Source: a virus (taxonomy: Duplodnaviria > Heunggongvirae > Uroviricota > Caudoviricetes). From it: a DNA stretch of 54,578 nucleotides. Both the position numbers and the translations under genes were made by a program. The stretch is taken from the IMG/VR virus record IMGVR_UViG_3300013383_000019, one strand, 5' to 3'. Below are positions 1,258-53,211 of the stretch, one piece after another. Each line of letters begins with the position of its first letter. Within the stretch, counting starts at the first letter, position 1. The notes beneath the pieces are model-generated. The model had not been told where the DNA came from and ran no database searches. It saw only the letters and a program-made list of their open reading frames with translations.

Positions 1258-1539
1258 TTATCCTTCGCAGTCTTCGTCGTCATAGACATCATCGTCCACA
1301 GAATTTCTCATCGCAGACTCAATCTTCTTGAAATTTTCTATACCAGCTTTTCCGAAATATCCGACATGAACCGCCCCGGCCAATGTGGCCGCGGTCTGCA
1401 GTACATCGATCATATAATCCCCTACCGCGGGAAACAAAGCGATCATCACAATAACAAGCACAACCAGCGCCCAGAATATCCAGAAAGTTCTGAAAAGAAT
1501 AATTTTCGAAGTCTCGGGTTTAGAAAGATTTTGTTTCAT
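1258..1539 (-). CDS. Holin-like membrane protein (93 aa)
   Basis: Two hydrophobic segments, acidic C-terminus, last gene of the lysis cassette. Confidence 0.65.
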   Translation of the reverse strand: MKQNLSKPETSKIILFRTFWIFWALVVLVIVMIALFPAVGDYMIDVLQTAATLAGAVHVGYFGKAGIENFKKIESAMRNSVDDDVYDDEDCEG

Positions 1540-1850
1540 TGTTTCCCTGGCTCAGTGGGGAGTTCGTCCAGCGCCTCTTTCAAATGCCGGACAATGCCGT
1601 TCCCGCCGAGCGTTATATATTGTTTGAACATATCCTCGACCACTTCGCGCGCATCGATTGGAAAATACCCGAGATGTTCGTATTGATTGTGTGCCTGATA
1701 AAGCCGGTCCCGCAGCAGCGCCACCATTCCGTGTCTGAGCGCTTTTTGCGTGCTCGCCTCTTTCTTGATATACGCGACGAACGCTCCAACGACCGCCGTC
1801 AGCAGCTACTCAACCCAATACTTTACCAGGAATTGAATTAGCCATTCCAC
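1536..1850 (-). CDS. Lysis-cassette membrane protein (104 aa) with in-frame TAG at codon 15 (1806-1808)
   Basis: AGGAG RBS then GTG. MEWLIQFLVKYWVE*LLTAVVGAFVAYIKK runs in frame into ORF 1536..1727 (MVALLRDRL...). N-terminal TM helix spans the TAG. Confidence 0.8.
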
Positions 1851-1865
1851 CAGGAATCACTCCTG

Positions 1866-2774
1866 TCAATATATTTTTGCCTGCTGAAGCAAGGCTCTGA
1901 ACGCTTCGGCCTCGGCTCTTGTGTCGAACCGGACGCCGACCGTGTAGGCACTAGGCTCGGATTCACCACGCACCGACACATAGGCGGCCATAACATACCC
2001 CGTTTGCCCATTGTACTCCACTTCGTACCACCCGTCCGTGATCGTTTCCGTGCTCAGGATATTCACTTCAGCCCCATTAGGAATCTTCAGAATCCGGTCA
2101 GCCGAAGCGCCTGGATATTTCCGCATATTGAGCGCGCCGCCGTTCGCGGTCGTTACCGTTCCAATCATTGTTATCGGCACCTCTTTTTCTTGCGCGGGGC
2201 GTATTTCGCACCCCGGATAATAAAACGCGAGAATTTCCTCGCAGGTTTTGCCGAGCGTGCCCGCCGCGTACTTCGCGCCTTCCTGGCTCATGCCCACGCC
2301 GTGTCCCAACTTCTTTCCGTTTGTAGCCGCCAAGTCCCACGGGTCATCCTGCGAAGGCAGGTATGGGAGCGCCGTTGAATTCCAACGCTCCGCGTTGCTG
2401 ATTTCGCGCCCGCCATTTGACTTGCTGAACGGGCAGCTTGTCAGAGGTTTGCCGTCATAATAGAGCACGAGTCCGGCCGTTGCTTTTACGCCGCGATGCG
2501 CGTTTTCATAAGCAGGGTCTACAGCCCGCTCCGCCCGATACGCCTGCGCCGTAGAGGACGCGTCGCTGATGGGCACGCCCTTCGTTAGATACGGGAGCGC
2601 GTATGTTCGAGCCGCGATGGTCTGTGCTTTGCATGCCTCCAGCGGGGCGACTCCTATCTCGCTCGCCACAACGCCCAGTAAATACTGCTCGAAGGGGATG
2701 GAAACAACATCCCCTTTGGCAGCATGATAATAGTCCGCGTTTGTTTTACGCGTGAGCTTAACCTTGATGTTCAT
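1866..2774 (-). CDS. SpoIID/LytB-domain cell-wall hydrolase with C-terminal SH3b (endolysin)
   Basis: EQYLLGVVASE, KAQTIAARTY and GHGVGMSQ.GA...LAFYYPG SpoIID motifs; LNMR..P...WY.V.YNG..GYV SH3b. Confidence 0.85.
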   Translation of the reverse strand: MNIKVKLTRKTNADYYHAAKGDVVSIPFEQYLLGVVASEIGVAPLEACKAQTIAARTYALPYLTKGVPISDASSTAQAYRAERAVDPAYENAHRGVKATAGLVLYYDGKPLTSCPFSKSNGGREISNAERWNSTALPYLPSQDDPWDLAATNGKKLGHGVGMSQEGAKYAAGTLGKTCEEILAFYYPGCEIRPAQEKEVPITMIGTVTTANGGALNMRKYPGASADRILKIPNGAEVNILSTETITDGWYEVEYNGQTGYVMAAYVSVRGESEPSAYTVGVRFDTRAEAEAFRALLQQAKIY

Positions 2775-3175
2775 TATTCAGCCTGTTCGTCATTATTAAA
2801 CGCTTTGGCGAGCTCCTTCAGTGCCGCGGCACTCATCTGTTTCAGCGCCGCCTCAATAGCCGCGCGGTCGACCTTTAGCCCCGCCTGTTCCAGTTTCTGT
2901 CCGATGAGGGCCCACAGTTCGTCGTATTGCTTGGTGAGCTTGTTCTTGTTGAAATTCTTTCGAACTACGCCCGTCACGATCGTGGTCAACAGGCCGAGCA
3001 CAAAGCATAGCACCGCCACTGCCAGTTCGGTCAGGTCGAAAGCACCGGCAGCGTCCGGTTCAGTCACAGGTGCCACAGGAGCGGTCGGTTCAGCCGCTGT
3101 CTCCGCCGCGGCGATACCAACGCATACTGTCATCATAAAAACCTATGTGAGCAAAATGCAAAACACTTTATTCAT
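2774..3175 (-). CDS. Signal-peptide-bearing, LL-H holin-like membrane protein with in-frame TAG at codon 11 (3143-3145)
   Basis: AAGGAGG RBS, MNKVFCILLT*VFMMTVCVGIAAAE joins ORF 2774..3136; internal TM and IEAAL..M motif. Confidence 0.8.
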
Positions 3176-3189
3176 AATATTTCCTCCTT

Positions 3190-3507
3190 TTAGCGCGCAA
3201 AAACAATGTAATTTGTAATGGACGACATTGTTCCACTGGTTGCGGTAAGCGTCAGTTTTGTGCCCGACAAAACCCACGTTGCATACGCGCCGCCATTCGC
3301 AGTTTTTGTAGTAACTGTTCCGTCTTTCGAATAAGACCAGATTTCACGAGAGTACCCACTCGACACACTGTAATCCGCCACGCCCACCCATTCAGTCGGA
3401 GCGAACCCCAGATCAAATGTGAAGTTGCCGCGGTCAGCAGTGCCAGCCTCAAAGAAAATTTTCGCGCTCCCGCCGCCACTGCCTGTGGCCAAAGGCTGCA
3501 TGATCAT
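3190..3507 (-). CDS. Hypothetical tail-associated protein (105 aa)
   Basis: AGGAGGG RBS, beta-rich Ser/Thr/Gly composition, lies in the tail fibre block. Confidence 0.7.
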   Translation of the reverse strand: MIMQPLATGSGGGSAKIFFEAGTADRGNFTFDLGFAPTEWVGVADYSVSSGYSREIWSYSKDGTVTTKTANGGAYATWVLSGTKLTLTATSGTMSSITNYIVFAR

Positions 3508-3518
3508 AGTATCCCTCC

Positions 3519-12842: not shown

Positions 12843-13184
12843 TCATCCCCCTTCGTAATTTACCGCGTTGATCTTCGGCATTACGTCAAAGGGGCCGTTG
12901 TATGTCGCGGTGCGGCGCTTCTCTCCGACAAACTCAATCGTAAGGTCGTACGTCCAATGCCCCTTCGGTATCTTGGCCGTCTCTTCATACGATATCGTCA
13001 GCGGATAAGCCCCCTATTCCTCGTCGTAATGAAGCTCCTGCTGGAACTGCGCCGCCCGGCAGGTAAAGTAAACGGCGGCAATCCAGGCCGGATTTATCGC
13101 TTCGCCAGCGTCGTCCAGCAACGTAAACGCGCGATCAACAGAATCGCCCTGCACGAATTCAATCGCGGCAGAGGTATCGTTCAT
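12843..13184 (-). CDS. BppU-like small baseplate protein (113 aa) with in-frame TAG at codon 57 (13014-13016)
   Basis: GGAGGTG RBS; MNDTSAAIEFVQGDS...HYDEE*GAYPLTISYEETAKIPKGHWTYDLTIEF...VNYEGG, ending at a TGA abutting the next gene. Confidence 0.8.
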
Positions 13185-13208
13185 GCTCTTCACCTCCATA
13201 GCACATAA

Positions 13209-13241
13209 CAAAAATGGGAGGAATTAAAAACTCCCCCCTCT
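13209..13241 (-). terminator. Intrinsic terminator
   Basis: GGGGGAG...TTCCTCCC hairpin followed by ATTTTTGTT on the - strand. Confidence 0.7.
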
Positions 13242-34852: not shown

Positions 34853-34882
34853 AAATAATTTCGTTTATATTATTTATGGGAT

Positions 34883-35800: not shown

Positions 35801-35842
35801 CTGACAAAAACAGGAAATTATATTACAGTTATAATATTATCC

Positions 35843-35875: not shown

Positions 35876-35886
35876 TCCTAAAAATC

Positions 35887-37335: not shown

Positions 37336-37392
37336 ACTATGGTTCCTCCTTGTTTTGTGTTCTGTTCCCGATTCCTCCTAAAATCAGTCCCG

Positions 37393-37878: not shown

Positions 37879-37891
37879 CCAATCAGCCCCC

Positions 37892-38458: not shown

Positions 38459-38461
38459 TAA

Positions 38462-39520: not shown

Positions 39521-39530
39521 GCGCGCCACC

Positions 39531-39953: not shown

Positions 39954-39967
39954 GGCGTTCACTCCTT

Positions 39968-40396: not shown

Positions 40397-40414
40397 TGCC
40401 TTTGCTCCTTTATA

Positions 40415-40448
40415 AAAATCAGGGGGAGGGGAATTTCCCCTCGCCCCT
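40415..40448 (-). terminator. Terminator after the capsid gene
   Basis: GGGGCGAGGGG/CCCCTCCCCC hairpin plus ATTTTTAT. Confidence 0.75.
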
Positions 40449-40457
40449 TAGCGAAGA

Positions 40458-41465
40458 TTAAAGAGTTGTGTCTTCGTACACGCTCAGATACGGACGATCG
40501 CCATAGACGATACCGGCACCCAGATACTGGTCCAGACGGACTTCGTAGGAGCTGTCGTCAATATTGGTCGCTTCCTGAGAGAAGATGTCGCCTTCGAACA
40601 CGACCTTGAGCGGACGCATTGCGGCGTCTGCGCCGGCCGGGAAGATGTACAGCTTGTCGGTGTCAAGAGCAAAGGTGTTGGTGCCCTCGACGATGGGGTT
40701 GATCATATTGATAACCTTCGCGCCGTTGTAGATGCCAACATAACCCATGCGGTTCGCTTCCTCGATAAGGCTGTCAGCAAACTGCTTGGTTGTAGTATTC
40801 GCAGAGAAGCCGGTCTGCTCAGCGAGCTTCGAGACAATATCGATGTCGCCGACGATAACCGCGCCGCCGCCGGCGGACACACGGTTCCAGAAACGAATCT
40901 GGTTATCGAGGGTTGCCTTCACCACGCCGGAACCGGACGCATAAAACGGAGAAGCCCACTGGGTAGCAGCCGCGTTCAGCACACCCTTGATATAGCCAAG
41001 CTCTTTAAGCTCCATCTGGTACGCCGCGTCATTAATCAGATCAGACATCTGTGCCTGACCGGTCTTCAGCTCGACGATGTTGATCACCGGGCGGGCAGAC
41101 ACGGCAACGGTGTCCAACGTAATCTGTTTGTTCGCGACCTTGCTGCGAGCAGTGGTTGCGCCCTTCGCCTGGATGTAGGCGCGGATGCCTTCCTGCTTCA
41201 CCTTGAAGGCGGCCTTCTCGTTGAAGCCCACGCGCTTCACATCGGCAACCATATCAAGGAAGTTGGTGGCCGGACGAACGATTTCGTTCACTGCAAAGCC
41301 AACCAGCTGCGCGATCTGGTAGCGGTTGTTGGGGGTGGGGTTGGATGCCAGATCCTTAATCAGATTGCTGGCCTCCGCTGCAACGTTAGAGTCGACGCGC
41401 TCATGCTTGGCCTGCGCCACCATAACGTCGACGATTTTGGAATCCTTACGAATCTCAATAGCCAT
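40458..41465 (-). CDS. Major capsid protein (335 aa)
   Basis: Size, synteny after protease and decoration genes, strong codon bias, HK97-like C-terminal pattern. Confidence 0.8.
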   Translation of the reverse strand: MAIEIRKDSKIVDVMVAQAKHERVDSNVAAEASNLIKDLASNPTPNNRYQIAQLVGFAVNEIVRPATNFLDMVADVKRVGFNEKAAFKVKQEGIRAYIQAKGATTARSKVANKQITLDTVAVSARPVINIVELKTGQAQMSDLINDAAYQMELKELGYIKGVLNAAATQWASPFYASGSGVVKATLDNQIRFWNRVSAGGGAVIVGDIDIVSKLAEQTGFSANTTTKQFADSLIEEANRMGYVGIYNGAKVINMINPIVEGTNTFALDTDKLYIFPAGADAAMRPLKVVFEGDIFSQEATNIDDSSYEVRLDQYLGAGIVYGDRPYLSVYEDTTL

Positions 41466-41504
41466 TATCTTTCACCTCAAATTATCAATTCCGGTATTCG
41501 CGGA

Positions 41505-41957
41505 TTAGGGGTCGCCGCCAGTACCGGCTGTCTTCTTGGCAACGGTACCGTTAGCCGCAATATTCGCCTGATCGCCAACCGCCAGCGCCGCGTACACGGT
41601 ATCGTCAACGGTCATGATCAGCTCTTCACCATCAAGGCAGCGGTGCATGCGAACATAATCGCCCACCTTGCAGGTGTACTTCGCGGTGTCGTAAGCTTCG
41701 GCGTCATTAATGTCCCATTCGTTCTCAAGGAAGAAGACTTCGTCGTCGCCGTGGTTCACAACGTCCAGCACGAGCGCCGGGCGGTTCCACAGCGTGGTCT
41801 TTTCCACAACGCGCAGAACCATACCGGTCTTTGCGGCTGCGACAGGCTTCACGCCGTCAGTAGTAATTTCAACAAACACGCCGTTCTCCATTGCGGCAGC
41901 GGCGGTATTGGCTCCGTCGTAAACGTAGCCCTGCAGTTTCTTCATATATCCTGCCAT
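41505..41957 (-). CDS. Capsid decoration / cement-like protein (150 aa)
   Basis: AGGAGG RBS, ENG.FV motif, between scaffold and capsid genes. Confidence 0.65.
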   Translation of the reverse strand: MAGYMKKLQGYVYDGANTAAAAMENGVFVEITTDGVKPVAAAKTGMVLRVVEKTTLWNRPALVLDVVNHGDDEVFFLENEWDINDAEAYDTAKYTCKVGDYVRMHRCLDGEELIMTVDDTVYAALAVGDQANIAANGTVAKKTAGTGGDP

Positions 41958-41975
41958 AATTTTTCCTCCTCGCAA

Positions 41976-43163
41976 TCAGCGGCTTTCAAGCAGACCGCCG
42001 TACTTGCTTTCAACTTTCATATTTTCGGTAATCACAAAGCTCGCCGTAGCAGTCTGTGTTTCCGGCTTGGAAATTTCCATCGCCATCGTGGCGATAGTTT
42101 CATAGTTCAGTTCCGCGATTGCCGCCTGAACCTTTTCGTCCTCAACGTCCAGCCCCTGCTTCTGTGCGAATGCTTTCGCGTTTTCCTGCTTGGCCTTCAG
42201 TTCGGCTGCCGCCTGTTCCGCCTTAATGGTTTCCAGCTCGGCCTTGGCCTTGTTCAATTCCTCGATCTGAGCGTTCAGCTCTTCGATCTTCTGGTCTTTT
42301 TCAGCGGCTGCCGCGTTCGCCTCTTCCAGCTTCTCGGCGCACTGCTTGCGCTCCTCTTCCGCCGCCGCAGCGGTTTCCGCATCGCGCTTGGCCTTTTCTT
42401 CGGCCTCAGGATCGGGCTTCGCCTCTTCCTTCAGCTTCTCGTTTTCCTCGGCCATCGCAGCGTTCTGCTGCTGAAGCTCCGCAATCAGCTGATCCTTTTC
42501 AGCAATTGCCTGCTTGGCTTCTTCAATCGTCACTTTGTTTTCAACTCCTTCAGTCGCGTTCTCCGCTTCCGCTCCATCCGCTTTTTCCTCCGCCACCAGC
42601 GACAGCGCCGTAGACTCGCGATAAGCCGGAGTCGATACGATCGCCATGCCCGTCAACGCGTTCGTGTCCGCCGCGTCCACATAGCGAACGCCCTCGATCA
42701 CAACCGTGTTATCCGGCACATACTTGATCTCGAAAGAAAAATTCAGCGCGGCAATGTTGTACAATTCCAGTACGCACTGGCAAACGTCCGCTTCCCGCTT
42801 GGGGATGCGAGCCTCGCCCATCAGCGATATGCCGTACTCGTCGCTCTCCTTCCAGAAGCGGCAGAGACTGCCAATCTGGGTAGAGTCGAACTTTCCGGTG
42901 CCCGGATTGTACATATGCCCAAGGTTTCTGTAGTCGCGCGCCCGCAGCCGATTGATATCGACATAGAGCGGGAGGCAGTCATACTTCGCAGGGTTCATAA
43001 CAATTTCATCAATGAACGCCTGCGTGACGCCTTCCCGGTTTCCATTCGGGCGCGTAGACAACATTCTCATCGTGACATAAAGAAAAATGTCATTCGATTT
43101 CTGTTCGGAGATGGAGATGTCGGAAGCAAGAAAGTAAAGTTTCTCGTCCGTCAACATAACCAC
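41976..43163 (-). CDS. Prohead protease-scaffold fusion (395 aa)
   Basis: N-terminal HK97-type protease fold (FSFEI...GMAIV..PAY), C-terminal Ala/Glu/Lys coiled coil. Confidence 0.8.
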   Translation of the reverse strand: MVMLTDEKLYFLASDISISEQKSNDIFLYVTMRMLSTRPNGNREGVTQAFIDEIVMNPAKYDCLPLYVDINRLRARDYRNLGHMYNPGTGKFDSTQIGSLCRFWKESDEYGISLMGEARIPKREADVCQCVLELYNIAALNFSFEIKYVPDNTVVIEGVRYVDAADTNALTGMAIVSTPAYRESTALSLVAEEKADGAEAENATEGVENKVTIEEAKQAIAEKDQLIAELQQQNAAMAEENEKLKEEAKPDPEAEEKAKRDAETAAAAEEERKQCAEKLEEANAAAAEKDQKIEELNAQIEELNKAKAELETIKAEQAAAELKAKQENAKAFAQKQGLDVEDEKVQAAIAELNYETIATMAMEISKPETQTATASFVITENMKVESKYGGLLESR

Positions 43164-43250
43164 AATCCTTCCTCAAAACTGCGTTAGGAGGGCCACAGTT
43201 TCTTGTGAAGTTATATAAACATGGCTTTCGCCATATCTATCAAAAAATTT

Positions 43251-44837
43251 TTACCCATCTGTGCTGGGCTTCGGCTGCTTGCCCGTTATCGCGTTCGCCG
43301 GATCGCTCGTGCGCTCCGATTCGTCCACTTCAGGCCGTCCAACCTTCCCCTCGATCAACGGCTCGTCCGGTTCCGTATTGGAAACCGTGTCATTGTCTGT
43401 GCTGTTGCCTGCGTCTGTTTCTTTCTTCGGCATCAACACCTGCGCATTGCCGCTGTTATCCTCTGTTTTCTTCCGCTCGACTTCCTGATCGTAGTCATAG
43501 CCGTAGGTTTGCAGCAGCGTCTTGTCGGACACCACGCCCTTCTCCCACAGCTTCATACACGCTTCGCGGAAGTCCTTGTCGCCAGAGAGGTCGACCGGCG
43601 GGAATGTAAACAGAGGGATGCTGGATTCCGCGCTATGCGGGATAGAAGCCGCGCCGCCCGCGCCGTTCAGCCTGCGATTGATTTTGTTCATCATCTCGCA
43701 GAAGCTGTCCTTCGCCTGACGGATACGCATCGCCGCCGTCTTCATGCTGACCTGCGCGCTCGCGAACGTCGAGCCGTCTTCCGACCGGCCGCTGACGATC
43801 ACGCCGCTGATTCCGCCGGCATTCAGGATTTCGGCGTTCACGCCCTTGTACTTGTCGTACTCGAACATGTCGTCCATCTTCGGCTGGATCACTTCTGCCG
43901 CGCACCAGTTATTGGTAACCGCCAGTGCGGTGCCCGTCATGGCGCTTTTGAAGATGTTCGACACCTGCCGCAGCGCGTCGACTGTCGGGACCACTTCATT
44001 CTTCGGGTCGCCGTATTTTACATGGAGAAAAGCCATCGCGCCCAAGTTCAGCAGCGAATCTTCATACTGCGAAATAATTTCCTTCTTGGAAAACGCGCGC
44101 AGGCATGTCGCCACCATCGGCACCGCATACCGCACCCAGTCTTCCTTCAGGTCCTGCAATACGAACGTATTCGCCGGATTCAGCTGGACATATTCCTTGC
44201 CTTCCTTTACGGCCGTCTGCACTTCTTTGGGGAAACCGCGCAGCCGAACGTCCAGCAGCTCGTCGTCCAGGTAATCCTTTTTTGCTTTAACGCCTTCGCG
44301 CTTCAGGTCCTGCGTAATGGTGCGGCAGTTGAATTCCAGCACCGGTTCTCCATCTACCATGACGTTCGCAATACGGATCATGTGTACCGGCAAAGTAATA
44401 AGAGAACCATCATCCATCAGGTATACATATACGTTTCCGTATTTGTAATATTGGAGGAAGATGCTCCTCATCTTATCTTTCAAATGAATCCTGTCATAGT
44501 AGTCAAGATATTTCTTCTTAACCTTCTCATTCGCGCCAACAAGTCGAAAGTCATCCGCAATACTAAACGGAGTGTAGACTTCCTTGATAATGCCGCGATA
44601 CAAAGGATCGGCGTCTACGTAATAATCGCTCAGCTGAAACAGACTTGTAATATTTGTCTGTTTATCTCTCAGTATCGTATCATAGTCATAACTCGCAAGA
44701 TCACCTGTATAGGTAATGTTGCGGTTATTGAACGTAATGCTTACATCGTCTTTGGCCGCGCCCACCGCGATTTCCCTCGGAGGGGCGAGCGAAGACTGCT
44801 GAGGCGAACGGTTCCATAGCCTGTTAAAAAATCCCAT
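43251..44837 (-). CDS. Portal protein (528 aa)
   Basis: Follows TerL; AGGAGG RBS, MGFFNRLW start, YY.YGNVY motif. Confidence 0.8.
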   Translation of the reverse strand: MGFFNRLWNRSPQQSSLAPPREIAVGAAKDDVSITFNNRNITYTGDLASYDYDTILRDKQTNITSLFQLSDYYVDADPLYRGIIKEVYTPFSIADDFRLVGANEKVKKKYLDYYDRIHLKDKMRSIFLQYYKYGNVYVYLMDDGSLITLPVHMIRIANVMVDGEPVLEFNCRTITQDLKREGVKAKKDYLDDELLDVRLRGFPKEVQTAVKEGKEYVQLNPANTFVLQDLKEDWVRYAVPMVATCLRAFSKKEIISQYEDSLLNLGAMAFLHVKYGDPKNEVVPTVDALRQVSNIFKSAMTGTALAVTNNWCAAEVIQPKMDDMFEYDKYKGVNAEILNAGGISGVIVSGRSEDGSTFASAQVSMKTAAMRIRQAKDSFCEMMNKINRRLNGAGGAASIPHSAESSIPLFTFPPVDLSGDKDFREACMKLWEKGVVSDKTLLQTYGYDYDQEVERKKTEDNSGNAQVLMPKKETDAGNSTDNDTVSNTEPDEPLIEGKVGRPEVDESERTSDPANAITGKQPKPSTDG

Positions 44838-44851
44838 CGCCTGTCGCCTCC

Positions 44852-46540
44852 TTAAAATTTTGTAACCAGCCCAATGCACTCCTCAGAGGAGCCCTGGATG
44901 TATTTCTTTTTGCGCAGTTCTTCCAGCCCACTGATATATAGCAACGCCATGCCCAGCGAACTGTACCGGTCTTTGTGCTGCGTTGATTTTGCCACGTCGT
45001 ACACGACCGCGCCCGCCTGCGTCGCTTTCGCAACCACGTTGCCCATCTCGATCTGGAGCGCGTCCGCTTCGATGAAAATCGCTTTCTCTTCCTGCGTCAG
45101 TGCTTTGCTTTGCGTTTCGTCATCATCTTCATCCCGCAGCATCACCTTGTTCCCAAGCACATGGCGCGAGTTAACCGGCAGCTCAAGCGATTCCTGCTCG
45201 AGAGCGATTGTTATGGAGGATACGATCTGCTGGTTTACCGTGATATTCGCAATAACCGGATGCAATAGCGGCACCGCATTGTGGATAATAGATTTCTCTG
45301 TGTCCATTACCAGCGGCGGATATTCCTTCCCATTTATGTCCACCCACGGCTGTGCCAGGAATTGCGGGAAAGCGTCACCCAGGCCGCGATGGTCGAATAC
45401 AACCTTGACTGTCCGCGGGAATTTCACCAGCAACTTTCGTACCTCGCCAGCCAACGCGTCCAGCCGTTTGCCGTGAAAAGATCGAATGTAGACAAGTTTC
45501 TTAATGTAGCCTCCATCGTCGCATTCGATCAATTTGATTACCGTAATAACCGCGTTGTCTGCATACTTCGAAGCCGACGTAGCCAAGTCGACGCCAATTA
45601 TGTAGTCTGATGTGCTCGATTTCGGCATTGCCACCTCGACGTCTTTCAGCACGCGGCATTTCTCCGTCAGTTCGTATGGGAACAAACTTCCCGCCTCAGC
45701 GCCGACAAAAATCGAATCATACTCCATTGCGAATTTGGATTCTTCCATGTCCCGGCGTTCCTTCTCGAAAAACGCCATAGGAGAAATCCCGACACGCGCC
45801 GCCGCCTCATAGTTTAACGCGCAGGCAAAGCAGTCTTTCTCGCCCTTTGCCATGTTCCGCAGTGTCCCGGTGAAAGCGTCGAAAAAATAATTGCTCTTCA
45901 GACACGCACTGGTGATACTAATCATCTTGGATGGATAGTCCGGTATCCCAAGCTGTACGCAGTTGTCGCGCGTCGTATTTCGAACCGGCTTCGCGATGGC
46001 TTCAAGGTCTTCCTTTTTTACCTCGGGTGCTTCGTCGATGACAATAACTTTCGCACGGTTTCCGCGGAATGTACCAATTGAATAGCTCTCAATTTTGCTT
46101 CCGTTCCGCAGCCGGCATACACCCTTGTTGCGGGCAAGCTGTACGGCGGAATGCCCGTTTGTTTCAATTTCCCGCAGTATATCCGTGTTCCGCACAAAGT
46201 AGTCGTCGATCTTTTTGATAACCAGCGTTGCCTGCTCCGCTGTGCCGCTGATGACCGCAATCAGGCTTCCGGGGTACAACACCCCCATCGCCAGACAGCA
46301 CACCGCCGTCAGCCATGTCTTACCGAAGCCGCGGCTCTGCACAAAATAGATTGTCTCGCGGTTTCCAAACATCCGGGCTTCGACCTTCTGGACATCTTTA
46401 AGCTTTATCTTGAAGTAGTCCTCGATGAAAACATCCAAATGTGTTCGCCAATACCAGATCTGCTCCTCCCAGCCGGGATCATTTTTGATCTCACGAATCT
46501 GGGTTGCTTTCATGATTCTGCTGTGGTCAATTGGGTTCAT
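44852..46540 (-). CDS. terL: Terminase large subunit (562 aa)
   Basis: Walker A SRGFGKT, Walker B VIVIDEA, nuclease IGVDLA and KDRYS motifs. Confidence 0.92.
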   Translation of the reverse strand: MNPIDHSRIMKATQIREIKNDPGWEEQIWYWRTHLDVFIEDYFKIKLKDVQKVEARMFGNRETIYFVQSRGFGKTWLTAVCCLAMGVLYPGSLIAVISGTAEQATLVIKKIDDYFVRNTDILREIETNGHSAVQLARNKGVCRLRNGSKIESYSIGTFRGNRAKVIVIDEAPEVKKEDLEAIAKPVRNTTRDNCVQLGIPDYPSKMISITSACLKSNYFFDAFTGTLRNMAKGEKDCFACALNYEAAARVGISPMAFFEKERRDMEESKFAMEYDSIFVGAEAGSLFPYELTEKCRVLKDVEVAMPKSSTSDYIIGVDLATSASKYADNAVITVIKLIECDDGGYIKKLVYIRSFHGKRLDALAGEVRKLLVKFPRTVKVVFDHRGLGDAFPQFLAQPWVDINGKEYPPLVMDTEKSIIHNAVPLLHPVIANITVNQQIVSSITIALEQESLELPVNSRHVLGNKVMLRDEDDDETQSKALTQEEKAIFIEADALQIEMGNVVAKATQAGAVVYDVAKSTQHKDRYSSLGMALLYISGLEELRKKKYIQGSSEECIGLVTKF

Positions 46541-47415
46541 AGCTGCCCCTCCAACCCGACCGACCGGAGCGTGTGCTCAAAATCATGTATTATCTTGTCC
46601 ACGTCATCTTCAGGAAAAGTGAAACCGTTTGTGTCCAGTTTGCCTGATACTTCGAGCCGCAGGATAATTTCGCCCAGCGATCCTAGCCCCGTTGCCTCGC
46701 CCGCCTTGCGTTTACAAGCTGCGAAGTTCGAGGATTTTGAAAGGTCGTCAAATATTTTCTGCGCTTCTTTGTATTCCTGATAGGACCCTTCGCCTCGCCG
46801 CATCCTGTCTTCCGCAACATCGGCGTTCAGGCTCGCCTTCGCAATTTTGCGTGCGTAATCCTGAATATTGATATTGTCCAACACGAAGTCTTCTTCGTAC
46901 CGGGCGTAGGTATCATCCAGCCACTCGATCTGGGTCGGTGTATAGTAACCGCGCCAGACCTTGCTGTATACCATCTTCTCCGCCTTTGTAGCGTCGTCGA
47001 TCATCTGCTCCCCGTCGGTGGATTGGGAGTTGCCCATGTTGTCGACATACACATAGATATTCGACAGGTTCATAATTCCCCAGAAACTCTTGATCGTAAA
47101 CTTCGTTACCATCTCGCGCTTCTTTTCAATCGGAGTAGATGAGCTGCAATATGTCTGGTCGGTGGAAAGTTGCAGATACGCTTTCTTTTCTGCGGTTTCC
47201 CAGTATTTGTCTTTCCAAAGGCGGTTGTTTTCGTAGCAATACTGCTCCAGCTTCTCCTTATCGGTGCAGTATTCCTTCGCACAATCGCGGCACCAGGAGT
47301 CGCGATACATCTGCTGCTTCCAGCCCTTGTTGGGATAGTATTCGATAAGGGGAAGAACTCTGTTGCAGCGCATGCAAATCTTGGTGATTACACCGGCTTG
47401 TTTTTGCCGCGCCAT
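46537..47415 (-). CDS. Zinc-finger protein upstream of TerL, probable terminase small subunit (292 aa)
   Basis: CxxC...CxxC N-terminus, ATGA overlap with terL. Confidence 0.6.
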   Translation of the reverse strand: MARQKQAGVITKICMRCNRVLPLIEYYPNKGWKQQMYRDSWCRDCAKEYCTDKEKLEQYCYENNRLWKDKYWETAEKKAYLQLSTDQTYCSSSTPIEKKREMVTKFTIKSFWGIMNLSNIYVYVDNMGNSQSTDGEQMIDDATKAEKMVYSKVWRGYYTPTQIEWLDDTYARYEEDFVLDNINIQDYARKIAKASLNADVAEDRMRRGEGSYQEYKEAQKIFDDLSKSSNFAACKRKAGEATGLGSLGEIILRLEVSGKLDTNGFTFPEDDVDKIIHDFEHTLRSVGLEGQL

Positions 47416-47429
47416 AATAATTCCTCCAA

Positions 47430-47460
47430 TAAAAATACCCCGGCCTTGCGGCAGGGGTAG
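47430..47460 (-). terminator. Intrinsic terminator
   Basis: TACCCCTGCC-GCAA-GGCCGGGGTA plus T5. Confidence 0.8.
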
Positions 47461-47463
47461 AAC

Positions 47464-48648
47464 TTACAATTTGATTGGATACACGCACCGGCGGCCATAA
47501 CCATGTTCTATCAGCATAGCGATCGCCCCGGCGGTTCCCCCGTAGTGTTTTGTCTGCGCATAACGGTCAGGGCCGCAAATGCTCGGTATCCGAACGATCA
47601 CGCTGTTCCCGTCCGGCGTTACGCCGGATGGATATTCCTGCTCCCGATGCTTGTGCGCACAGATGAAAAAATCGATCGGCTCCCCGTAAAGGTTCACCGC
47701 ATTGCGCGCGATATCTGAGATGGAGCGTTCTTCGTCTCCGTGTAGCAGGAGAAAATTAAACCCTTCCACGCTCACGTAGTTCATCCGCTCGCAGCTCGCG
47801 TCGATATAAATTCCGTCCTCCGCAAGCCGGCTCTCAAGATACCACATAATGATCTTCTCAAGATTTTCCTCTTCAAACTCGCGGTTCTTTGCTTTCAGCG
47901 GGCGAACTTCAGAATGATTGCCGCTTACCGCATGCACGGAAACCAGACATCCTGTTTCGATGTACAGTCGCTGTATCCATTTCGCAAGATATTCCGCCAG
48001 CTGGATTGTGCTCTCCACAAGCCCGTATTCCAGCCGCATCAATTGAGATTGTCGGAGCATCCCGTCCAGCATGTCGCCCATGAGGAATAGATACAGCGTG
48101 TGCGGATGTTCCTTTACTACGATCTTTTTCGTCTCGACCAGAAGTCTTTCCATTCGGCTTCTGAACACATTGTGATCGTACTGATTTACAACTTCTCCGC
48201 GCAGCCCCTTGATCTTTATCTCTGCCCCATAATGGAAATCGCCGACAGCCAGCGTCAACGCCTTGTTGCCATTGTCGCTGTCAAGCCGCACCGGAGTCCA
48301 TTTGTATTGCCCTGCCGAAGGCAGCGCTTTCACCGCCTCACGGATCGTCTCCCGTAATAGTTCGCTGCGAGACTGTGTGCGATACATCTGGTTGACTTGC
48401 TTCGTCAAGTCGCGCATCTTCTGCCGTTCGATGAAACCGGCTTCCTGCCCGCCGCCCAGCATCCCTGCGTCAGCCGCGAGCTTTATTCCCACGCCGGCTT
48501 TGCGCAGCGTTTCAGCGTTGATGCCAAGGTCATATTCCTCAACGATCTCGCTCCAATCCTTGTCGCTCAGACCGTTTTTCTTTTCCTTAATGACGCCGAT
48601 CAGGTTTCTTTTTTCCTGCGCCGTCAGCTCCTCCAACAATCTGCTCAT
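47464..48648 (-). CDS. Calcineurin-like metallophosphoesterase (394 aa)
   Basis: GDFHYG, MGD, GNH, HGD and H.H motifs. Confidence 0.88.
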   Translation of the reverse strand: MSRLLEELTAQEKRNLIGVIKEKKNGLSDKDWSEIVEEYDLGINAETLRKAGVGIKLAADAGMLGGGQEAGFIERQKMRDLTKQVNQMYRTQSRSELLRETIREAVKALPSAGQYKWTPVRLDSDNGNKALTLAVGDFHYGAEIKIKGLRGEVVNQYDHNVFRSRMERLLVETKKIVVKEHPHTLYLFLMGDMLDGMLRQSQLMRLEYGLVESTIQLAEYLAKWIQRLYIETGCLVSVHAVSGNHSEVRPLKAKNREFEEENLEKIIMWYLESRLAEDGIYIDASCERMNYVSVEGFNFLLLHGDEERSISDIARNAVNLYGEPIDFFICAHKHREQEYPSGVTPDGNSVIVRIPSICGPDRYAQTKHYGGTAGAIAMLIEHGYGRRCVYPIKL

Positions 48649-48679
48649 TGTCTGCTCCTTTATCCATGAAACACCTTTA

Positions 48680-48713
48680 TAAAAAGAGGGCGGCAGAGAA
48701 GTTGTGCCGCCCA
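48680..48713 (-). terminator. Intrinsic terminator
   Basis: GGGCGGCA/TGCCGCCC stem plus TCTTTTT. Confidence 0.8.
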
Positions 48714-48729
48714 GTGGAACATTGATCCG

Positions 48730-49224
48730 TCAGGACATGTACTGCTGCGCCGGATGATCTGCCAGCCATTCGTTGCCGCTGGTCAGATTATAATGAGCGG
48801 AAGTAGCGCCGACGTGTGTGAACGTGCCGAGATATTCTGTAACCTTGAAATACGGACAAATCTCCGGATTCTTGTGGTCGCAGAATTCCTTCGTCACCTG
48901 GCCATTCTCCATCAGGGTAAACGTACCGGGGTTGGCATAATCATGATAGCCCCACTTACCATCCGTGGTCTTTGTCACAACGCTTCGTGCAGCCGCGCCG
49001 CTCGCCGCATGGCCATCCGTATAATCCCACCATGTGCTATTCAGCGGGTAGCGAGTATTCTCGATCTGGACGAAAGAATCGGTCTTTGCATCCGCCACAA
49101 GCTTGCCGCCGTGAGGAAGCGTCGCCGCACCGAGCAGGCTGTTGCCGTTCCAGACATAGCAGCACGTGGTCGCAATCGATTCGTTCATAGACATCTTATT
49201 CATAGAGATAACAGGTTTCAGCAT
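48730..49224 (-). CDS. Hypothetical protein (164 aa, CC motif near the N-terminus)
   Basis: GGAGG RBS, intact ORF, followed by a terminator. Confidence 0.7.
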   Translation of the reverse strand: MLKPVISMNKMSMNESIATTCCYVWNGNSLLGAATLPHGGKLVADAKTDSFVQIENTRYPLNSTWWDYTDGHAASGAAARSVVTKTTDGKWGYHDYANPGTFTLMENGQVTKEFCDHKNPEICPYFKVTEYLGTFTHVGATSAHYNLTSGNEWLADHPAQQYMS

Positions 49225-49330
49225 TAAAGGTTCCTCCGTTTTGTGTTAAAATGTTGGGGCGGGCGGGAGGGAAGAATTGTCAGCGACCAGAGATGAAATA
49301 AATCTCAATAAACAGAAAGGAATACATAAG

Positions 49331-49438
49331 ATGGTTTTGATTTCAGTTCTCACACTGTAGAATGATATCGCCAAAGAGATTTTCTTGGTGCTGCTCGGCA
49401 TTCTTATCGAACAGTATCTTGAAGGTCGCTTAAAGTAA
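49331..49438 (+). CDS. 35-aa hydrophobic peptide, type I toxin-like, in-frame TAG at codon 10 (49358-49360)
   Basis: GAAAGGA RBS; MVLISVLTL*NDIAKEIFLVLLGILIEQYLEGRLK; TAACAGC/GCTGTTA hairpin at the stop; TG-N-TAAAAT extended -10 near 49247. Confidence 0.55.
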
Positions 49439-49539
49439 CAGCCCCAAGCTGTTATGTGATAGAGGCTAAGCCTTGATGGGATTCCGGCTTCCCGGTTCCA
49501 CCTGAAGCAAGCCGCCCGCCATAGCCCGTTATACGGGCG

Positions 49540-49617
49540 TGGTCGCACGATTCAGAGTCGAACTGACTAAGCCGAGGTATAAGCTCGGAGCGAAAATACC
49601 GTTTCGCGTTTCGTGCG
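49540..49617 (-). tRNA. tRNA with UAU anticodon (Ile, AUA-reading), atypical D and T arms
   Basis: 7-bp acceptor CGCACGA/TCGTGCG, A73, encoded CCA, stem CCGAG/CTCGG with loop CT-TAT-AC. Confidence 0.75.
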
Positions 49618-49823
49618 ATGCGGGGTCTTGTACGTAACTCGACCCCTGTGCTTTCCTTTTTCGTCAGGAAGCCAAACGCCATATTTGTATGGAATCCGCG
49701 TCAGCAATTTCGGTTCGACGCGATTAACCGGCAGACGACCCTCCGGAAGGCTTCGCCCGGGAGCGCTTCCCGAAGCAGGACGCATCTGCGCGCCCTCCGC
49801 TTGTTGCCTCTGGCCATTGGCGT

Positions 49824-49900
49824 TGGTGAGCGGTGAGGAGTTCGAATCCTCAACTCGCGAGATTAGAAGTCGCTGTGTCTGCCAATTGCACCAACCGCCC
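49824..49900 (-). tRNA. Amber suppressor tRNA (anticodon CUA) with Leu-type identity elements
   Basis: GGGCGGT TG GTGCAATTGGCAGACAC A GCGAC TT-CTA-AT CTCGC GAGTT GAGGA TTCGAAC TCCTC ACCGCTC A CCA; anticodon at 49864-49866; A73, A15-U48, A20a, G21. Confidence 0.85.
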
Positions 49901-49915
49901 AAGTCAAGATATCCT

Positions 49916-49974
49916 GGACGCGTTTCTAAAATGCAAGTTACAAATTTGCTCTAGAATGTTTGCTGTAAGCGTCC
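49916..49974 (-). ncRNA. ACAGCAA hairpin motif, copy A
   Basis: GGACGC-TTACAGCAA...GCGTCC-AG; same pattern at 51317, 51404 and 51518. Confidence 0.6.
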
Positions 49975-49977
49975 AAA

Positions 49978-50050
49978 TGGAGCCGAGGGGATTCGAACCC
50001 CTAACCTCTCGCGTGCAAGGCGAGTACGCTGCCAATTGCGTCACGGCCCC
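49978..50050 (-). tRNA. tRNA-Ala(UGC), CCA not encoded
   Basis: Cloverleaf, G3-U70, anticodon TGC. Confidence 0.95.
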
Positions 50051-50133
50051 AAACGCCGGTTTCCCGGCGTCCAGAAAGGAGGTATTCAATGAAAAGCCGG
50101 CGTCGAGGCAGCAACTCTCCGCCGACACGATGC

Positions 50134-50209
50134 TGGAGCCGTCTCTCGGACTCGAACCGAGCGCCTGCGCTTTACAAGAGCGCTGCTCTGCCAAATGAGC
50201 TAAGACGGC
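50134..50209 (-). tRNA. tRNA-Thr(UGU)
   Basis: Cloverleaf, anticodon TGT, encoded CCA. Confidence 0.95.
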
Positions 50210-50211
50210 AA

Positions 50212-50282
50212 AGCGCGATACGGGATTTGAACCCGCTACAACGCCTTGGAAGGGCGTTATGTTACCGTTACATTAATCGCGC
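50212..50282 (-). tRNA. tRNA-Gly(UCC), CCA not encoded
   Basis: Cloverleaf, anticodon TCC, U73. Confidence 0.93.
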
Positions 50283-50396
50283 GGGTGAGGTTTGGCTCTT
50301 TGCGTATAACGCATTATCCCAGCCTCGAATTGGGGTGGCTTACTTTACTTCCAGCCGCCTTAGGAAGAATGGATTTGGCTCTAGGCGAATGAGCCA

Positions 50397-50467
50397 TTGC
50401 GCAGCCGGGATTCGAACCCGGATTACAGGAACATGAATCCCGCGTGCTGCCTTTACACTACCGCGCG
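50397..50467 (-). tRNA. tRNA(CAU), initiator-like
   Basis: Anticodon CAT, C1-A72 mismatch, G run at 28-30 rather than 29-31, CCA not encoded. Confidence 0.8.
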
Positions 50468-50481
50468 TCGTGTGTTATAAT
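50452..50481 (+). promoter_or_regulatory. Sigma-A promoter for 50569..50823; -35 lies inside the antisense tRNA(CAU) gene
   Basis: TTTACA-18 bp-TATAAT with extended TG. Confidence 0.65.
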
Positions 50482-50568
50482 AATGGCACAGCAGTATACT
50501 TCGAGTTTTCGCGAAGAACAGCCTTGGTTATTTTATTAGGGCGGAAAATAATTCAAGGAGGTTTTCTC

Positions 50569-50823
50569 ATGAACACTTAGAAGAAACTGTTTGTATAGCT
50601 GCTGTGCCTCGCCATCATGACTCCATTCCTTGGAGAATTTCTCTCCTTGCCGTCATGGTGGGCAGCCATAGCAGGTGCGCTGTGCGTCGTTCACGAAATT
50701 CTTTCGTTGGTCATTCCGACTCAGTACGCTAAGTTTGTTGAATGGACAAATCCGCAGAAACAGTGGAAGACCCGCCTGAAAAGGCGAAGACGACGACATA
50801 ACGCTGGAAGCCGTTTCCGTTAA
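50569..50823 (+). CDS. 84-aa membrane protein, paralog A, two in-frame TAGs (codons 4 and 10)
   Basis: AAGGAGG RBS; MNT*KKLFV*LLCLAIMTPFLGEFLSLP...WKTRLKRRRRRH; TAGs at 50578 and 50596. Confidence 0.85.
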
Positions 50824-50836
50824 GGAGCGGCTTTTG
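50808..50836 (+). terminator. Terminator of paralog A
   Basis: AAGCCGTTTCC/GGAGCGGCTT plus TT. Confidence 0.75.
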
Positions 50837-50844
50837 CTATTTAT

Positions 50845-50931
50845 TGGCGGAGAGAGCCTGATTCGAACAGGCGCGCCTTACGGCCTATCGGTTTAGCAAA
50901 CCGACCTCTTAAACCGCTTGAGTATCTCTCC
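50845..50931 (-). tRNA. tRNA-Ser(GCU)
   Basis: Class II cloverleaf with long variable arm, G73, encoded CCA. Confidence 0.95.
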
Positions 50932-50946
50932 ATAATATGCTATACT
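50918..50946 (+). promoter_or_regulatory. Sigma-A promoter for 51034..51288; -35 lies inside the antisense tRNA-Ser gene
   Basis: TTGAGT-17 bp-TATACT with extended TG. Confidence 0.7.
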
Positions 50947-51033
50947 GTTCGTACGGGCTGGAACGCTCTGACTTTCCGCGGTTGCCGCATGTGTGTTTTA
51001 TTGGCGAGAAAAACATCACATGGAGGTACACCA

Positions 51034-51288
51034 ATGAAAACATAGAGAATTCTGCTCGTCATCCTTTTGTGTGCGGCGTTCGCCGTATCGTTCCTGGCGG
51101 ATTATTTCCCGCTACCGCGTGCGATTGTCAGTATAGCAAAAGGTGTTTGTGCCGCCAAGGAATTCTTGGCGCTGCTCTTTCCCGCGACGTATGCCACGTA
51201 GCTGGAACGACCACTTGGGCGGAAGCGCTGGAAAACTCGCCTGATAAGAAGATCCAAACGGCGCAAACAAACAGGGGCTGCCCGATAA
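51034..51288 (+). CDS. 84-aa membrane protein, paralog B, two in-frame TAGs (codons 4 and 56); missed by the ORF track
   Basis: GGAGG RBS; MKT*RILLVILLCAAFAVSFLADYFPLP...YAT*LERPLGRKRWKTRLIRR; same length as A and alignable without gaps. Confidence 0.85.
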
Positions 51289-51306
51289 GGGCGGCTCTTG
51301 TTTCTT
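51274..51306 (+). terminator. Terminator of paralog B
   Basis: GGGGCTGCCC/GGGCGGCTCT plus TGTTTCTT. Confidence 0.75.
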
Positions 51307-51316
51307 AAATAAGACT

Positions 51317-51374
51317 GGGCGTGTTATGAAATAAAGATTACGAATCTTCTCCAAATAGATTGCTGTTAGCGCCC
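51317..51374 (-). ncRNA. ACAGCAA hairpin motif, copy B
   Basis: GGGCG-CTAACAGCAA...CGCCC-AGTCTTA. Confidence 0.6.
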
Positions 51375-51377
51375 GCT

Positions 51378-51501
51378 ACCGCGCGCCCGGACTTGAACCG
51401 GGAATGCGCAGGATGTCATCAAAAAACTTGCTGTCAGCGCACCACTATATAAACCGTGCGCGTTTCTTTTCCCTGTCGCTCTACCATTGAGCTACACGCG
51501 G
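51378..51501 (-). ncRNA. tRNA-like RNA with a 59-nt insert replacing the anticodon loop
   Basis: Acceptor CCGCGTG/CGCGCGG, canonical D arm and T arm, CAGG/CCTG stem enclosing 51413-51471; overlaps ACAGCAA motif copy D. Confidence 0.75.
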
Positions 51502-51517
51502 ATAATGCAGTAAGACT

Positions 51518-51607
51518 GGGCGCATGTTTTTGATGAATCACTGATGTCAAACCAGTGACTGAAAGTTTTCATTAGAACTTATATCAATTGTGTTGCTGTC
51601 AGCGCCC
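51518..51607 (-). ncRNA. ACAGCAA hairpin motif, copy C
   Basis: GGGCGC-TGACAGCAA...GCGCCC-AGTCTTA. Confidence 0.6.
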
Positions 51608-51672
51608 AATATTCAGTTGTCAATGTTCGCCGTGAACTTTTGCGTTCACTATTAAAGGGAACATTTTAAGGG

Positions 51673-52461
51673 TCATTTTTTCACTTTTGCAAAAACTTTT
51701 TCAACTTTTTCCAAAGTTTTTTCATCCGCGATTCCATTCGCTGGCAATGTGTTGTCCTGCTGAAATCTCTTCACCGCTCGCTGTGTGAGCGCACCGAACT
51801 TACCGTCCGCCGCCCCACAGGAATACCCGATTTCATTCAGCCGATTCTGAAGCATACGGACATCGTTCCCACTCGACCCACGCTTCAATATAGTTCTTTT
51901 TATAGGGCTCGGCTTAGCTTCTGGTTCGGATTCGGGTTCACTGCTTCCTGTATATGTAAGTGCCGGCATCTCGAACCAGTGTGTAAAATTCCGATCCGCG
52001 ACATTCGCCTCGACAATCCCTGTGGCAAACCCGCGAGCCTCAACCAGTTTCCCGCCTCCGATATAAACACCCACATGCCCGCTACGCCACAGTATCAAGC
52101 CAGGACACTCCGGCAACGTGTTGATTATTCCCCATTTCAGCCCGCGCTGCTTCGCATAGGAAAACATCCCGTTCGCGCCTCTATCGGGGCAGCCATTCGA
52201 CCCATATCGCATCTTGCCGGTTTCTTCGTCCGTCCACATATACCCCTTGATGAGCCCGATACAGTCTGCGCATTTTTTGCCGGCTTCTATATCTGCGCGA
52301 TAGCGCGGCATCCTTGCCGCCGTATAATGCGCCGGGTACTGAGCTGCCTTGCGCTTCAACAGCGCGGTTGTACAATCATGGCAATGCGTGCCATACCAAT
52401 AAGGTTGTCCAACCCATTCTTTTACAAATGCAACCAGACCGGCCGCAGTCTTTATCGCCAT
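51673..52461 (-). CDS. NlpC/P60-family peptidoglycan hydrolase with PG-binding domain
   Basis: DC.GLIKG catalytic Cys, GHVGVYIG, C-terminal L..GS.G.DV..LQ..L...ADG.FG..T..AV..FQ. Confidence 0.9.
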   Translation of the reverse strand: MAIKTAAGLVAFVKEWVGQPYWYGTHCHDCTTALLKRKAAQYPAHYTAARMPRYRADIEAGKKCADCIGLIKGYMWTDEETGKMRYGSNGCPDRGANGMFSYAKQRGLKWGIINTLPECPGLILWRSGHVGVYIGGGKLVEARGFATGIVEANVADRNFTHWFEMPALTYTGSSEPESEPEAKPSPIKRTILKRGSSGNDVRMLQNRLNEIGYSCGAADGKFGALTQRAVKRFQQDNTLPANGIADEKTLEKVEKVFAKVKK

Positions 52462-52462
52462 T

Positions 52463-53179
52463 TCAGCTCACCCTCTCAACAAACTCATCAACTATACGGT
52501 TCAAATCCTGATCGAAGAACGCAACAATCTTTCCATTCTTTACAGCGCACGCAATATGATCCATATCATAAAGCTCGCCCTCGCGGGTCTGCTTCACGCC
52601 ATATTGTTCTACCTGCAAAGAAATATGGTATCGGTTGCCAAACAGCTCAAACTCATTGCCTGTGTCAACAACCGGGAAAAAGAATTCACACGCGCCGAGC
52701 TCATTTCGAATTTGCTCGGAGCGGACAATGCGTGATACTCGCTTCGGCTTCTTTTTCGGGGCGGCTCTGCGCCGCTCCATGCGCTCAGCTTTGCGGTCAA
52801 GATTCTCAAGCAGAATCTCAAACCCGCTTTCGTCTTCATCTTCGGGGGGAGCACCATTGCCGTAAAGAGTGTATTCCACGCTGTGGGGGCAGGAAGATAC
52901 CGGGACTTCCCTCTTACCATTCAGAATATCCTTGTAATCAGTCACGATACCTTCTGTGTCGGAACGCATCAAAAAATATGCAAGCCCGTCGAGGAAGGTC
53001 TTCACCTTATCCTCCGGAGTCCGCTGATCATAATGCCGCGTGCTGATCCAGTTGTTTTCGCAATACTGCTTCCAGACTTCGATCTATTCGGCTATCGCCT
53101 TAGACCTCTGTTCACTGTCTGCAACGCGCAGCTTCTTTACTTTCCCGTTCGGGGTAATAACATTGTAACCAAGTATAAT
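52463..53179 (-). CDS. Conserved phage protein with in-frame TAG (53084-53086); start uncertain (ATT 53179, ATA 53176 or TTG 53209)
   Basis: GGGAGGG RBS, then ILGYNVITPNGKVKKL...SKAIAE*IEVWKQYCENNW...DKVKTFLDG in frame with ORF 52463..53005. Confidence 0.75.
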
Positions 53180-53211
53180 CAGTCCCTCCCTTATATTAAT
53201 ATCAAACAAGT

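Follow-up and report, generated by a model that had tools for sequence, protein, structure and literature searches.

The window analysed here is a stretch of 54,578 nucleotides (nt) from a phage of the Caudoviricetes (IMG/VR record IMGVR_UViG_3300013383_000019), in which 14 TAG codons stand in frame in 12 genes and a tRNA with the anticodon CUA is encoded at 49824-49900 (minus strand). An initial annotation had proposed that UAG is read as leucine (Leu) in these genes. Every TAG was confirmed at the coordinate and on the strand given there, and when TAG is translated as sense, the 12 frames named there, which the standard code breaks, are joined or extended. The tally of residues in homologues, the alignment columns of the window's own sites, the leucine-type tRNA and the literature support the proposal as far as sequences can do so. 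It is highly probable that TAG is read as leucine through a phage-encoded CUA tRNA derived from tRNA-Leu, and TAG would, moreover, form a gate on late genes.

Many of the TAGs lie in virion genes on the minus strand. In the gene of the distal tail protein Dit (20586-21665; 359 residues; phrog_33 and Pfam Sipho_tail), TAG is codon 29 (21579-21581) and is kept in all six loci of the clade, in a column that is variable and holds glutamine (Gln) in a 72%-identical homologue; the first 28 residues are conserved in this homologue, which is likewise 359 residues long. In the tail tube gene (36733-37335; YomU_Tube type, 200 residues; phrog_2729, with homologues that carry PF27173), TAG is codon 33 (37237-37239). 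The entire N-terminus of this protein is conserved in an 87%-identical homologue, and codon 33 faces Leu in this relative (CTT in the related locus L103) and Leu, Val, Ile or Ala in all 23 homologues. The tail fibre gene (13282-14457, 391 residues) carries TAG at codon 27 (14377-14379) within the N-terminal motif Y..LD.V.Y.G, which is conserved among homologues; the TAG is kept in loci L001 and L003-L005, and 8 of the 10 N-terminal homologues have Leu at this position. The tape measure gene (24633-32641), which encodes about 2581 residues once a putative intron is removed and has PHROG matches, carries TAG at codon 122 (32276-32278), facing CTG in L003 and L103. The gene of a 122-residue virion protein with a weak head-tail joining match (12843-13211) carries TAG at codon 66 (13014-13016), inside the PHROG match of residues 18-116; this TAG is kept in L003-L005 and is CAG in L001. 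Finally, a 93-residue protein of the head region (39248-39529) has TAG at codon 36 (39422-39424), which is kept in L100-L102 and replaced by CTG in L103 (86% identical).

The other TAG-bearing genes encode small membrane proteins or proteins without assigned function. On the minus strand, a 104-residue protein with an N-terminal membrane helix (1536-1850; phrog_4105), beside the lysis genes, has TAG at codon 15 (1806-1808), which the PHROG match of residues 9-102 includes and at which homologues vary among Q, S, W, V, A and L. A 260-residue protein of unknown function (52463-53245, minus strand), a neighbour of tRNA arrays in related phages, has TAG at codon 54 (53084-53086); its homologues occur in the related records G005-G009, where the column is Leu in G005, G006 and G007 and again TAG in G009. 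Two paralogous 84-residue membrane proteins, 41% identical, are encoded on the plus strand, paralogue A antisense within the tRNA cluster (50569-50823, with TAG at 50578, codon 4, and at 50596, codon 10) and paralogue B at 51034-51288 (TAG at 51043, codon 4, and at 51199, codon 56). Both thus have TAG at codon 4, and their alignment places the codon 10 TAG of A against Ile and the codon 56 TAG of B against Phe, as had been noticed before. Promoter-like sites occur at paralogue A (50452-50481) and paralogue B (50918-50946), and a terminator-like site at paralogue A (50805-50836). Two further frames were called earlier. One, at 2774-3175 (minus strand), would encode a small secreted or membrane protein adjoining the endolysin, with TAG (3143-3145) in the hydrophobic signal or membrane core of its translation; no homologue was found, and the gene call follows from context. 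The other, at 49328-49438 (plus strand), is a putative hydrophobic frame of 36 residues with TAG at 49358-49360, known from translation only. Of the 12 frames, these two are the ones for which homologues give no evidence.

Protein conservation continues across the TAG in at least nine genes, including those for Dit, the tape measure, the tail tube and the tail fibre, and for Dit, the tail-tube-like protein, the tail fibre and the 104- and 122-residue proteins, matches to PHROG or Pfam profiles extend across the TAG. It could be supposed that the TAGs are true stops, that the genes start downstream of them or are broken and that the CUA tRNA is incidental, since the TAGs are mostly close to the 5' ends and use of a start codon further on is conceivable there. 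However, the residues upstream of the TAG are conserved in the full-length homologues of Dit, the tail tube, the tail fibre and the 260-residue protein, and the TAGs of the tape measure and of the 122-residue protein lie as deep as codons 122 and 66. Diverged relatives and independent assemblies also share TAG sites with the window, and CUA tRNAs occur in seven of nine related records, so that we give this supposition next to no credence. Nor do the TAGs stem from faulty assembly: those at 32276, 37237 and 39422 are retained in three independent assemblies from other samples (L100-L102), and those at 14377, 21579 and 13014 in diverged relatives whose proteins differ by 10-35%. Moreover, contigs from four public runs cover 34600-54578, and no TAG variant is among the 40 differences listed (343 further differences exist).

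Just downstream of the tail tube gene, the short minus-strand frames 36296-36532 and 35887-36090 contain further in-frame TAGs at 36524, 36455 and 36058. All three are kept in L100-L102, and the first two in L103 (86% identical). The gene callers placed no genes in the 1.2-kb stretch that holds these frames, which may be additional TAG-bearing genes beyond those listed before.

The tape measure gene, which carries TAG at codon 122, is not complete in its 550-residue frame. This frame is only a part of the gene, and the TAA that seems to end it lies inside an insertion, past which the protein carries on into a frame of 2049 residues. The insertion is a putative group I-like intron of about 263 nt (30729-30991, minus strand), whose boundaries were inferred from alignment with L001. 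It is present in the window and in L003 (L003:1816-2080) and absent from L001, which is 94% identical and has a continuous frame that realigns from an ADEIGV stretch past the gap. The Rfam group I intron model (RF00028) matches the insertion over its full length, though weakly (23.2 bits, E = 7.8e-4) and under the gathering score of 50.

The CUA tRNA was detected by ARAGORN and scores 39.9 bits with the Rfam tRNA model when scanned alone. It is 77 nt long, with a variable loop of 5 nt, discriminator A73 and an encoded CCA. Its D arm is of leucine type, with a 3-base-pair stem, the loop AAUUGGCAG and A15 with U48; these features (A14, A15, G18 G19 and the AAUUGG.AG loop) match tRNA-Leu of related phages and of two bacterial genomes, and the acceptor stem, too, agrees with leucine tRNAs. 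The acceptor stem is the same as, and the D arm nearly the same as, that of an 89-nt CUA tRNA with a long variable arm in the related phage G001. When 68 distinct tRNAs from the two bacterial genomes and related phages were compared, the ten nearest non-suppressor neighbours of the G001 suppressor were all tRNA-Leu, while the window's tRNA was nearest to the G001 suppressor, with tRNA-Leu making up 7 of the next 13. Nine related IMG/VR records were searched, leaving aside the low-GC code-15 control G014, and seven of them encode a CUA tRNA (G001, G005-G009 and G013). In addition, G005 encodes a 76-nt tRNA (L147:1956-2031) with the anticodon CAA, a leucine-type D arm, A73 and a short variable loop, and the window's tRNA matches it in D arm and A73. 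Short-loop tRNAs of leucine type therefore occur among these phages, and this one is possibly a natural short-loop tRNA-Leu of a phage, to judge from its sequence; one base change leads from CAA to CUA.

The suppressor belongs to an array of six tRNAs found by ARAGORN in 49824-50931. The others, at 49977-50931 on the minus strand (ARAGORN and Rfam), are Ala(UGC), Thr(UGU), Gly(UCC), an initiator-like Met(CAU) and Ser(GCU). The tRNA-Met(CAU) (50397-50467, minus strand) has a C1-A72 mismatch atop the acceptor stem, as in bacterial initiator tRNAs. A consensus scan gave no promoter for the suppressor tRNA, the Rfam scan gave no ribozyme, including the theta ribozyme, next to it, and when the suppressor tRNAs were compared by BLAST with E. 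coli genomes and with phage records, all matches were chance ones. A CUA tRNA with a long arm (87 nt) also occurs on a 25.8-kb contig of a metagenome-assembled genome of Alloprevotella sp. (L096, G004:C27:18220-18330); its sequence bears no relation to that of the window's suppressor and comes closest to a tRNA-Ser. The tRNA array of G009 includes, according to ARAGORN, a tRNA whose anticodon has four bases, GTTG (L151:2320-2400).

To identify the residue, every locus was translated with TAG as X, only the best-scoring frame per region was used, and the residue facing each TAG was tabulated. This gave 22 independent sites, which comprise the window together with L100-L102, L001, L003/L103 and the two paralogues. 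Leu faces TAG at 13 of them, mostly as CTG, CTT, CTC or CTA and once as TTG; Gln at six, as CAG wherever the codon was read; Thr at one (ACG); and Ile and Phe at one each, both in the paralogues. In this tally, of the kind that had been suggested as a check, Leu prevails over Gln. Likelihoods of all 20 residues were then compared with the use of substitution frequencies from the sense codons of the same alignments, and Leu was the best over the 22 sites, by 10.7 log units over methionine (Met), 17.7 over Ile and 20.4 over Gln. The window's own ten sites alone favour Leu over Gln by 8.5 log units. The Leu codons that face TAG are mostly CTN, which is two changes from TAG, and a Gln code could hardly account for 13 replacements of Leu by way of two base changes.

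The most familiar assignment is nevertheless Gln, as in the code-15 phages, for which the CUA tRNA would be charged with Gln. It can draw on the six Gln residues that face TAG, including those of the nearest homologues of Dit and of the 104-residue protein, and in E. coli mischarging of amber suppressors with Gln is frequent. It is also the sole assignment of TAG reported in the phage literature searched. Besides the deficit of 20.4 log units, however, it would place Gln in columns that are Leu in 8 of 10 homologues (tail fibre), aliphatic (tail tube) or Leu in three of three (260-residue protein). The tRNA, with A73 and its leucine-type D arm, shows no glutamine-type features, and its neighbours are mainly tRNA-Leu. 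The six Gln codons, moreover, are all CAG, one transition from TAG. Taken together, these results make the Gln assignment very unlikely. Another hydrophobic residue such as Met or Ile might be considered instead, as Met came second in the likelihood comparison and scored a little above Leu for the relatives L108-L110, and suppressors of Ile type were predicted for gut phages in a survey of isotypes (PMC10879173). This is a highly improbable alternative, because Met and Ile fall well behind Leu by the log units given above and the tRNA resembles tRNA-Leu rather than tRNA-Met or tRNA-Ile.

The same likelihood test was run per genome across the relatives, with the low-GC, TAG-dense phages L033, L035 and L037 as a control. 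Leu was returned for L015 (34 sites, +26.5 over Gln), L111 (21 sites, +25.7), L112 (+23.4) and L107 (+21.3) and also for L022 and L030, and TAGs of the Leu-scoring relatives occupy columns that are Leu in 20 of 20 to 35 of 35 sequences. On the other hand, Gln was returned for all three controls, by 61 to 86 units. The method therefore distinguishes the two codes, and on these alignments both appear to occur among phages that share the tail module. The phages L033, L034, L046, L035 and L037, of 35-40% GC, share the N-terminal domain of Dit with the window phage and have about 100 in-frame TAGs per 10-20 kb, aligned with Gln; phages that read TAG as Gln and as Leu therefore share homologous tail genes. 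A guess from the D arm that the long-arm suppressors of G009 and G013 are of tyrosine type was dropped when the alignment test gave Leu for G009 (L111). In record G001 (L010, L011, L031 and L042), whose suppressor is of leucine type, 32 of 39 homologues have Tyr at the position of one TAG of Dit (for example L011:10136), and another TAG lies in a Leu column.

The 14 TAGs among about 15,500 codons (about 0.09%), which compare with 1,123 ordinary Leu codons, are concentrated near gene starts, with a mean relative position of 0.22 and nine of them within the first 36 codons (Kolmogorov-Smirnov p = 0.0012). In diverged relatives, TAG is retained at 3 of 4 and 3 of 6 verified sites, compared with 14-36% for CTA, TTA and TTG, and the TAGs that are lost mostly turn into Leu codons. 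The large serine recombinase (integrase) at 1-1104 (plus strand; Pfam Recombinase, Zn_ribbon_recom and DUF4368), which the window start truncates, contains no in-frame TAG and uses TAG as its own stop. With regard to the other genes, which had been said to end in TAA or TGA, minus-strand open reading frames of at least 120 residues under the standard code end 25 times in TAA and 20 times in TGA, and the only TAG end among them is the in-frame TAG of the tape measure.

Several observations weigh against the leucine assignment. Gln faces TAG at 6 of the 22 sites, far above the 2% expected for a Leu codon, and it is the nearest sense residue at three of the window's own TAGs, namely Dit codon 29, codon 15 of the 104-residue protein and 13014. 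Across the window, the TAGs show no significant difference in hydropathy context from Leu codons (Mann-Whitney p = 0.28) or from Gln codons (p = 0.40). The long variable arm of ordinary bacterial tRNA-Leu is absent from the tRNA, which has mismatches at 13:22 and 31:39, so that efficient and specific leucylation is not assured. The lack of TAG stops is weak evidence, as TAG makes up only about 5% of stops in standard-code relatives as well. The Gln-facing sites are located in variable columns or in the tape measure, and at such tolerant sites the abundant CAG may have become TAG by one C-to-T transition. A positive kernel-density ratio for the hydropathy context was set aside because it rests on few membrane-helix sites.

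These observations could also be accommodated by mixed or partial decoding, in which insertion is mainly of Leu with some mischarging, or in which weak competition with release factor 1 gives a mixture of truncated and full-length products. The combination of Leu and Gln among the facing residues and the odd tRNA, with its short loop, its two mismatches and its modest score of 39.9 bits, are in line with such decoding, and the host presumably retains release factor 1, no release-factor gene having been noticed in the window. We consider it unlikely, as essential virion proteins both here and in relatives bear TAG where Leu is strongly conserved, which argues for mostly faithful insertion of leucine.

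The leucine assignment suggests the following mechanism. The amber suppressor would be a phage-encoded derivative of tRNA-Leu with the anticodon CUA. Bacterial leucyl-tRNA synthetase (LeuRS) does not recognise the anticodon of the tRNA, so charging of the suppressor with leucine by the host LeuRS is expected. The ribosome would then put leucine at UAG in competition with release factor 1. The TAGs are few, as a rule one to a gene and for the most part in the first 40 codons, and they occur in the late genes of the tail, head and lysis region as well as in genes of small membrane proteins. These genes would give short peptides only when the suppressor is missing, and full-length proteins when it is present, so that TAG would specify leucine and at the same time gate late and potentially harmful products. 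The clustering of TAGs near gene starts fits such a translational gate opened by the suppressor tRNA. The integrase, without in-frame TAG and with TAG as its stop, fits the published model in which a code switch separates lysogeny from late genes.

Moreover, we consider it fairly probable that TAG-to-Leu is a natural phage code common to a whole family of large SPbeta-like phages of Firmicutes in the animal gut. These phages would exploit the anticodon-blind LeuRS with leucine-derived CUA tRNAs of both long-arm and short-loop types and would use few, selected 5' TAGs as a switch that is invisible to code-prediction tools. The usual rule for the detection of recoded phages is a gain in coding density of 10% or more under an alternative code, and the window stays below this gain, its loss of density under the standard code being small. 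Tools based on density would miss the phage because most of its genes are intact under code 11 and only 14 TAGs are present. Other marks of recoded phages are found here, that is, in-frame stops in conserved genes, a matching suppressor tRNA and an integrase free of the recoded stop.

The window belongs to a temperate phage whose genome measures about 118 kb; contigs with proteins identical to those of the window reach 117-119 kb. A query with Dit against IMG/VR and one with the tail tube against a phage collection gave no close relatives. One long gene block on the minus strand makes up most of the window, with an exonuclease, an endonuclease-like protein, the terminase, the portal, a YonB-type capsid protein and the YomU-type tail tube (Pfam names), as well as the tape measure, Dit, a Prophage_tail protein, the tail fibres and an SpoIID/SH3 endolysin (PHROG and Pfam matches). 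The virion proteins are of SPbeta type, and the Pfam names of the capsid and tail proteins match those of Bacillus phage SPbeta. A host among the Firmicutes/Clostridia is suggested by DUF4368 in the recombinase and by SpoIID and SH3_3 in the endolysin, and a Clostridia bacterium of the gut is probable. Between Dit and the tape measure lies a low-GC island (21829-24245; 43% compared with about 55% GC), which encodes a gene with HTH_3 and Peptidase_M78 domains (ImmA/IrrE-like) and appears to be an insertion within the tail module.

Annotation pipelines offer only codes 4, 11 and 15, and they would split a dozen genes of such a phage or place Gln for Leu. If the leucine assignment is true, phages exploit a third host synthetase, an anticodon-blind one, beyond the stated rule that only the synthetases for Gln and Trp are used. 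The few TAGs near gene starts point to regulation and not to wholesale recoding, and the code switch as a lytic gate becomes testable in a simple system of one tRNA and few codons. A short-loop leucine suppressor may also interest studies of genetic code expansion.

The phage literature searched names only Gln for recoded TAG. In phages with a code unlike that of the host, only TAG to Gln and TGA to Trp were reported (Borges et al., bioRxiv 10.1101/2021.08.26.457843). Like the code-15 gut phages of that study (crAss-like, Lak, Garnet and Topaz), the window phage has in-frame TAGs in late and structural genes, a CUA tRNA of its own and an integrase without in-frame TAG, and a code switch was proposed there to control late or lytic genes; unlike them, it appears to use Leu. 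Its TAG density is also far lower, as the code-15 control relatives have dozens to hundreds per 20 kb. CUA tRNAs of gut Caudoviricetes have been tied to recoding, with suppressor isotypes predicted to be Gln (69%), Trp (19%), Ile (10%) or Tyr (1%) and none to be Leu (Kienbeck et al., 2024; PMC10879173). The window's tRNA differs from these in its likely isotype and in that no theta ribozyme adjoins it.

Assignment of UAG to leucine is known elsewhere. In the NCBI genetic codes 16 and 22 of chlorophycean and Scenedesmus mitochondria, TAG is Leu. The same change occurred in some phyllopharyngean ciliates (PMC11687900). These are whole organellar or nuclear codes, whereas the case here is a virus code within a host that is presumably on the standard code. 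A close parallel to the tRNA is E. coli supP, a leucine-inserting amber suppressor that arose from the leuX tRNA-Leu(CAA) by one base change to CUA and stays a substrate of LeuRS. However, supP is a mutant host allele with a long variable arm, and the suppressor here is a natural phage gene with a short loop that is kept alongside conserved TAGs. For the lack of the long arm, the natural short-loop (type I) tRNA-Leu(CAA) of Streptomyces coelicolor, which is leucylated by LeuRS, offers a precedent (PMC6614811). That tRNA reads a normal Leu codon, and particular features of the Streptomyces enzyme were needed to charge it; by analogy the host's LeuRS may accept the window's tRNA, though the precedent is no proof of this. 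Against the phage literature searched, leucine and low density would be new here; stop codon recoding in phages via a suppressor tRNA was already known.

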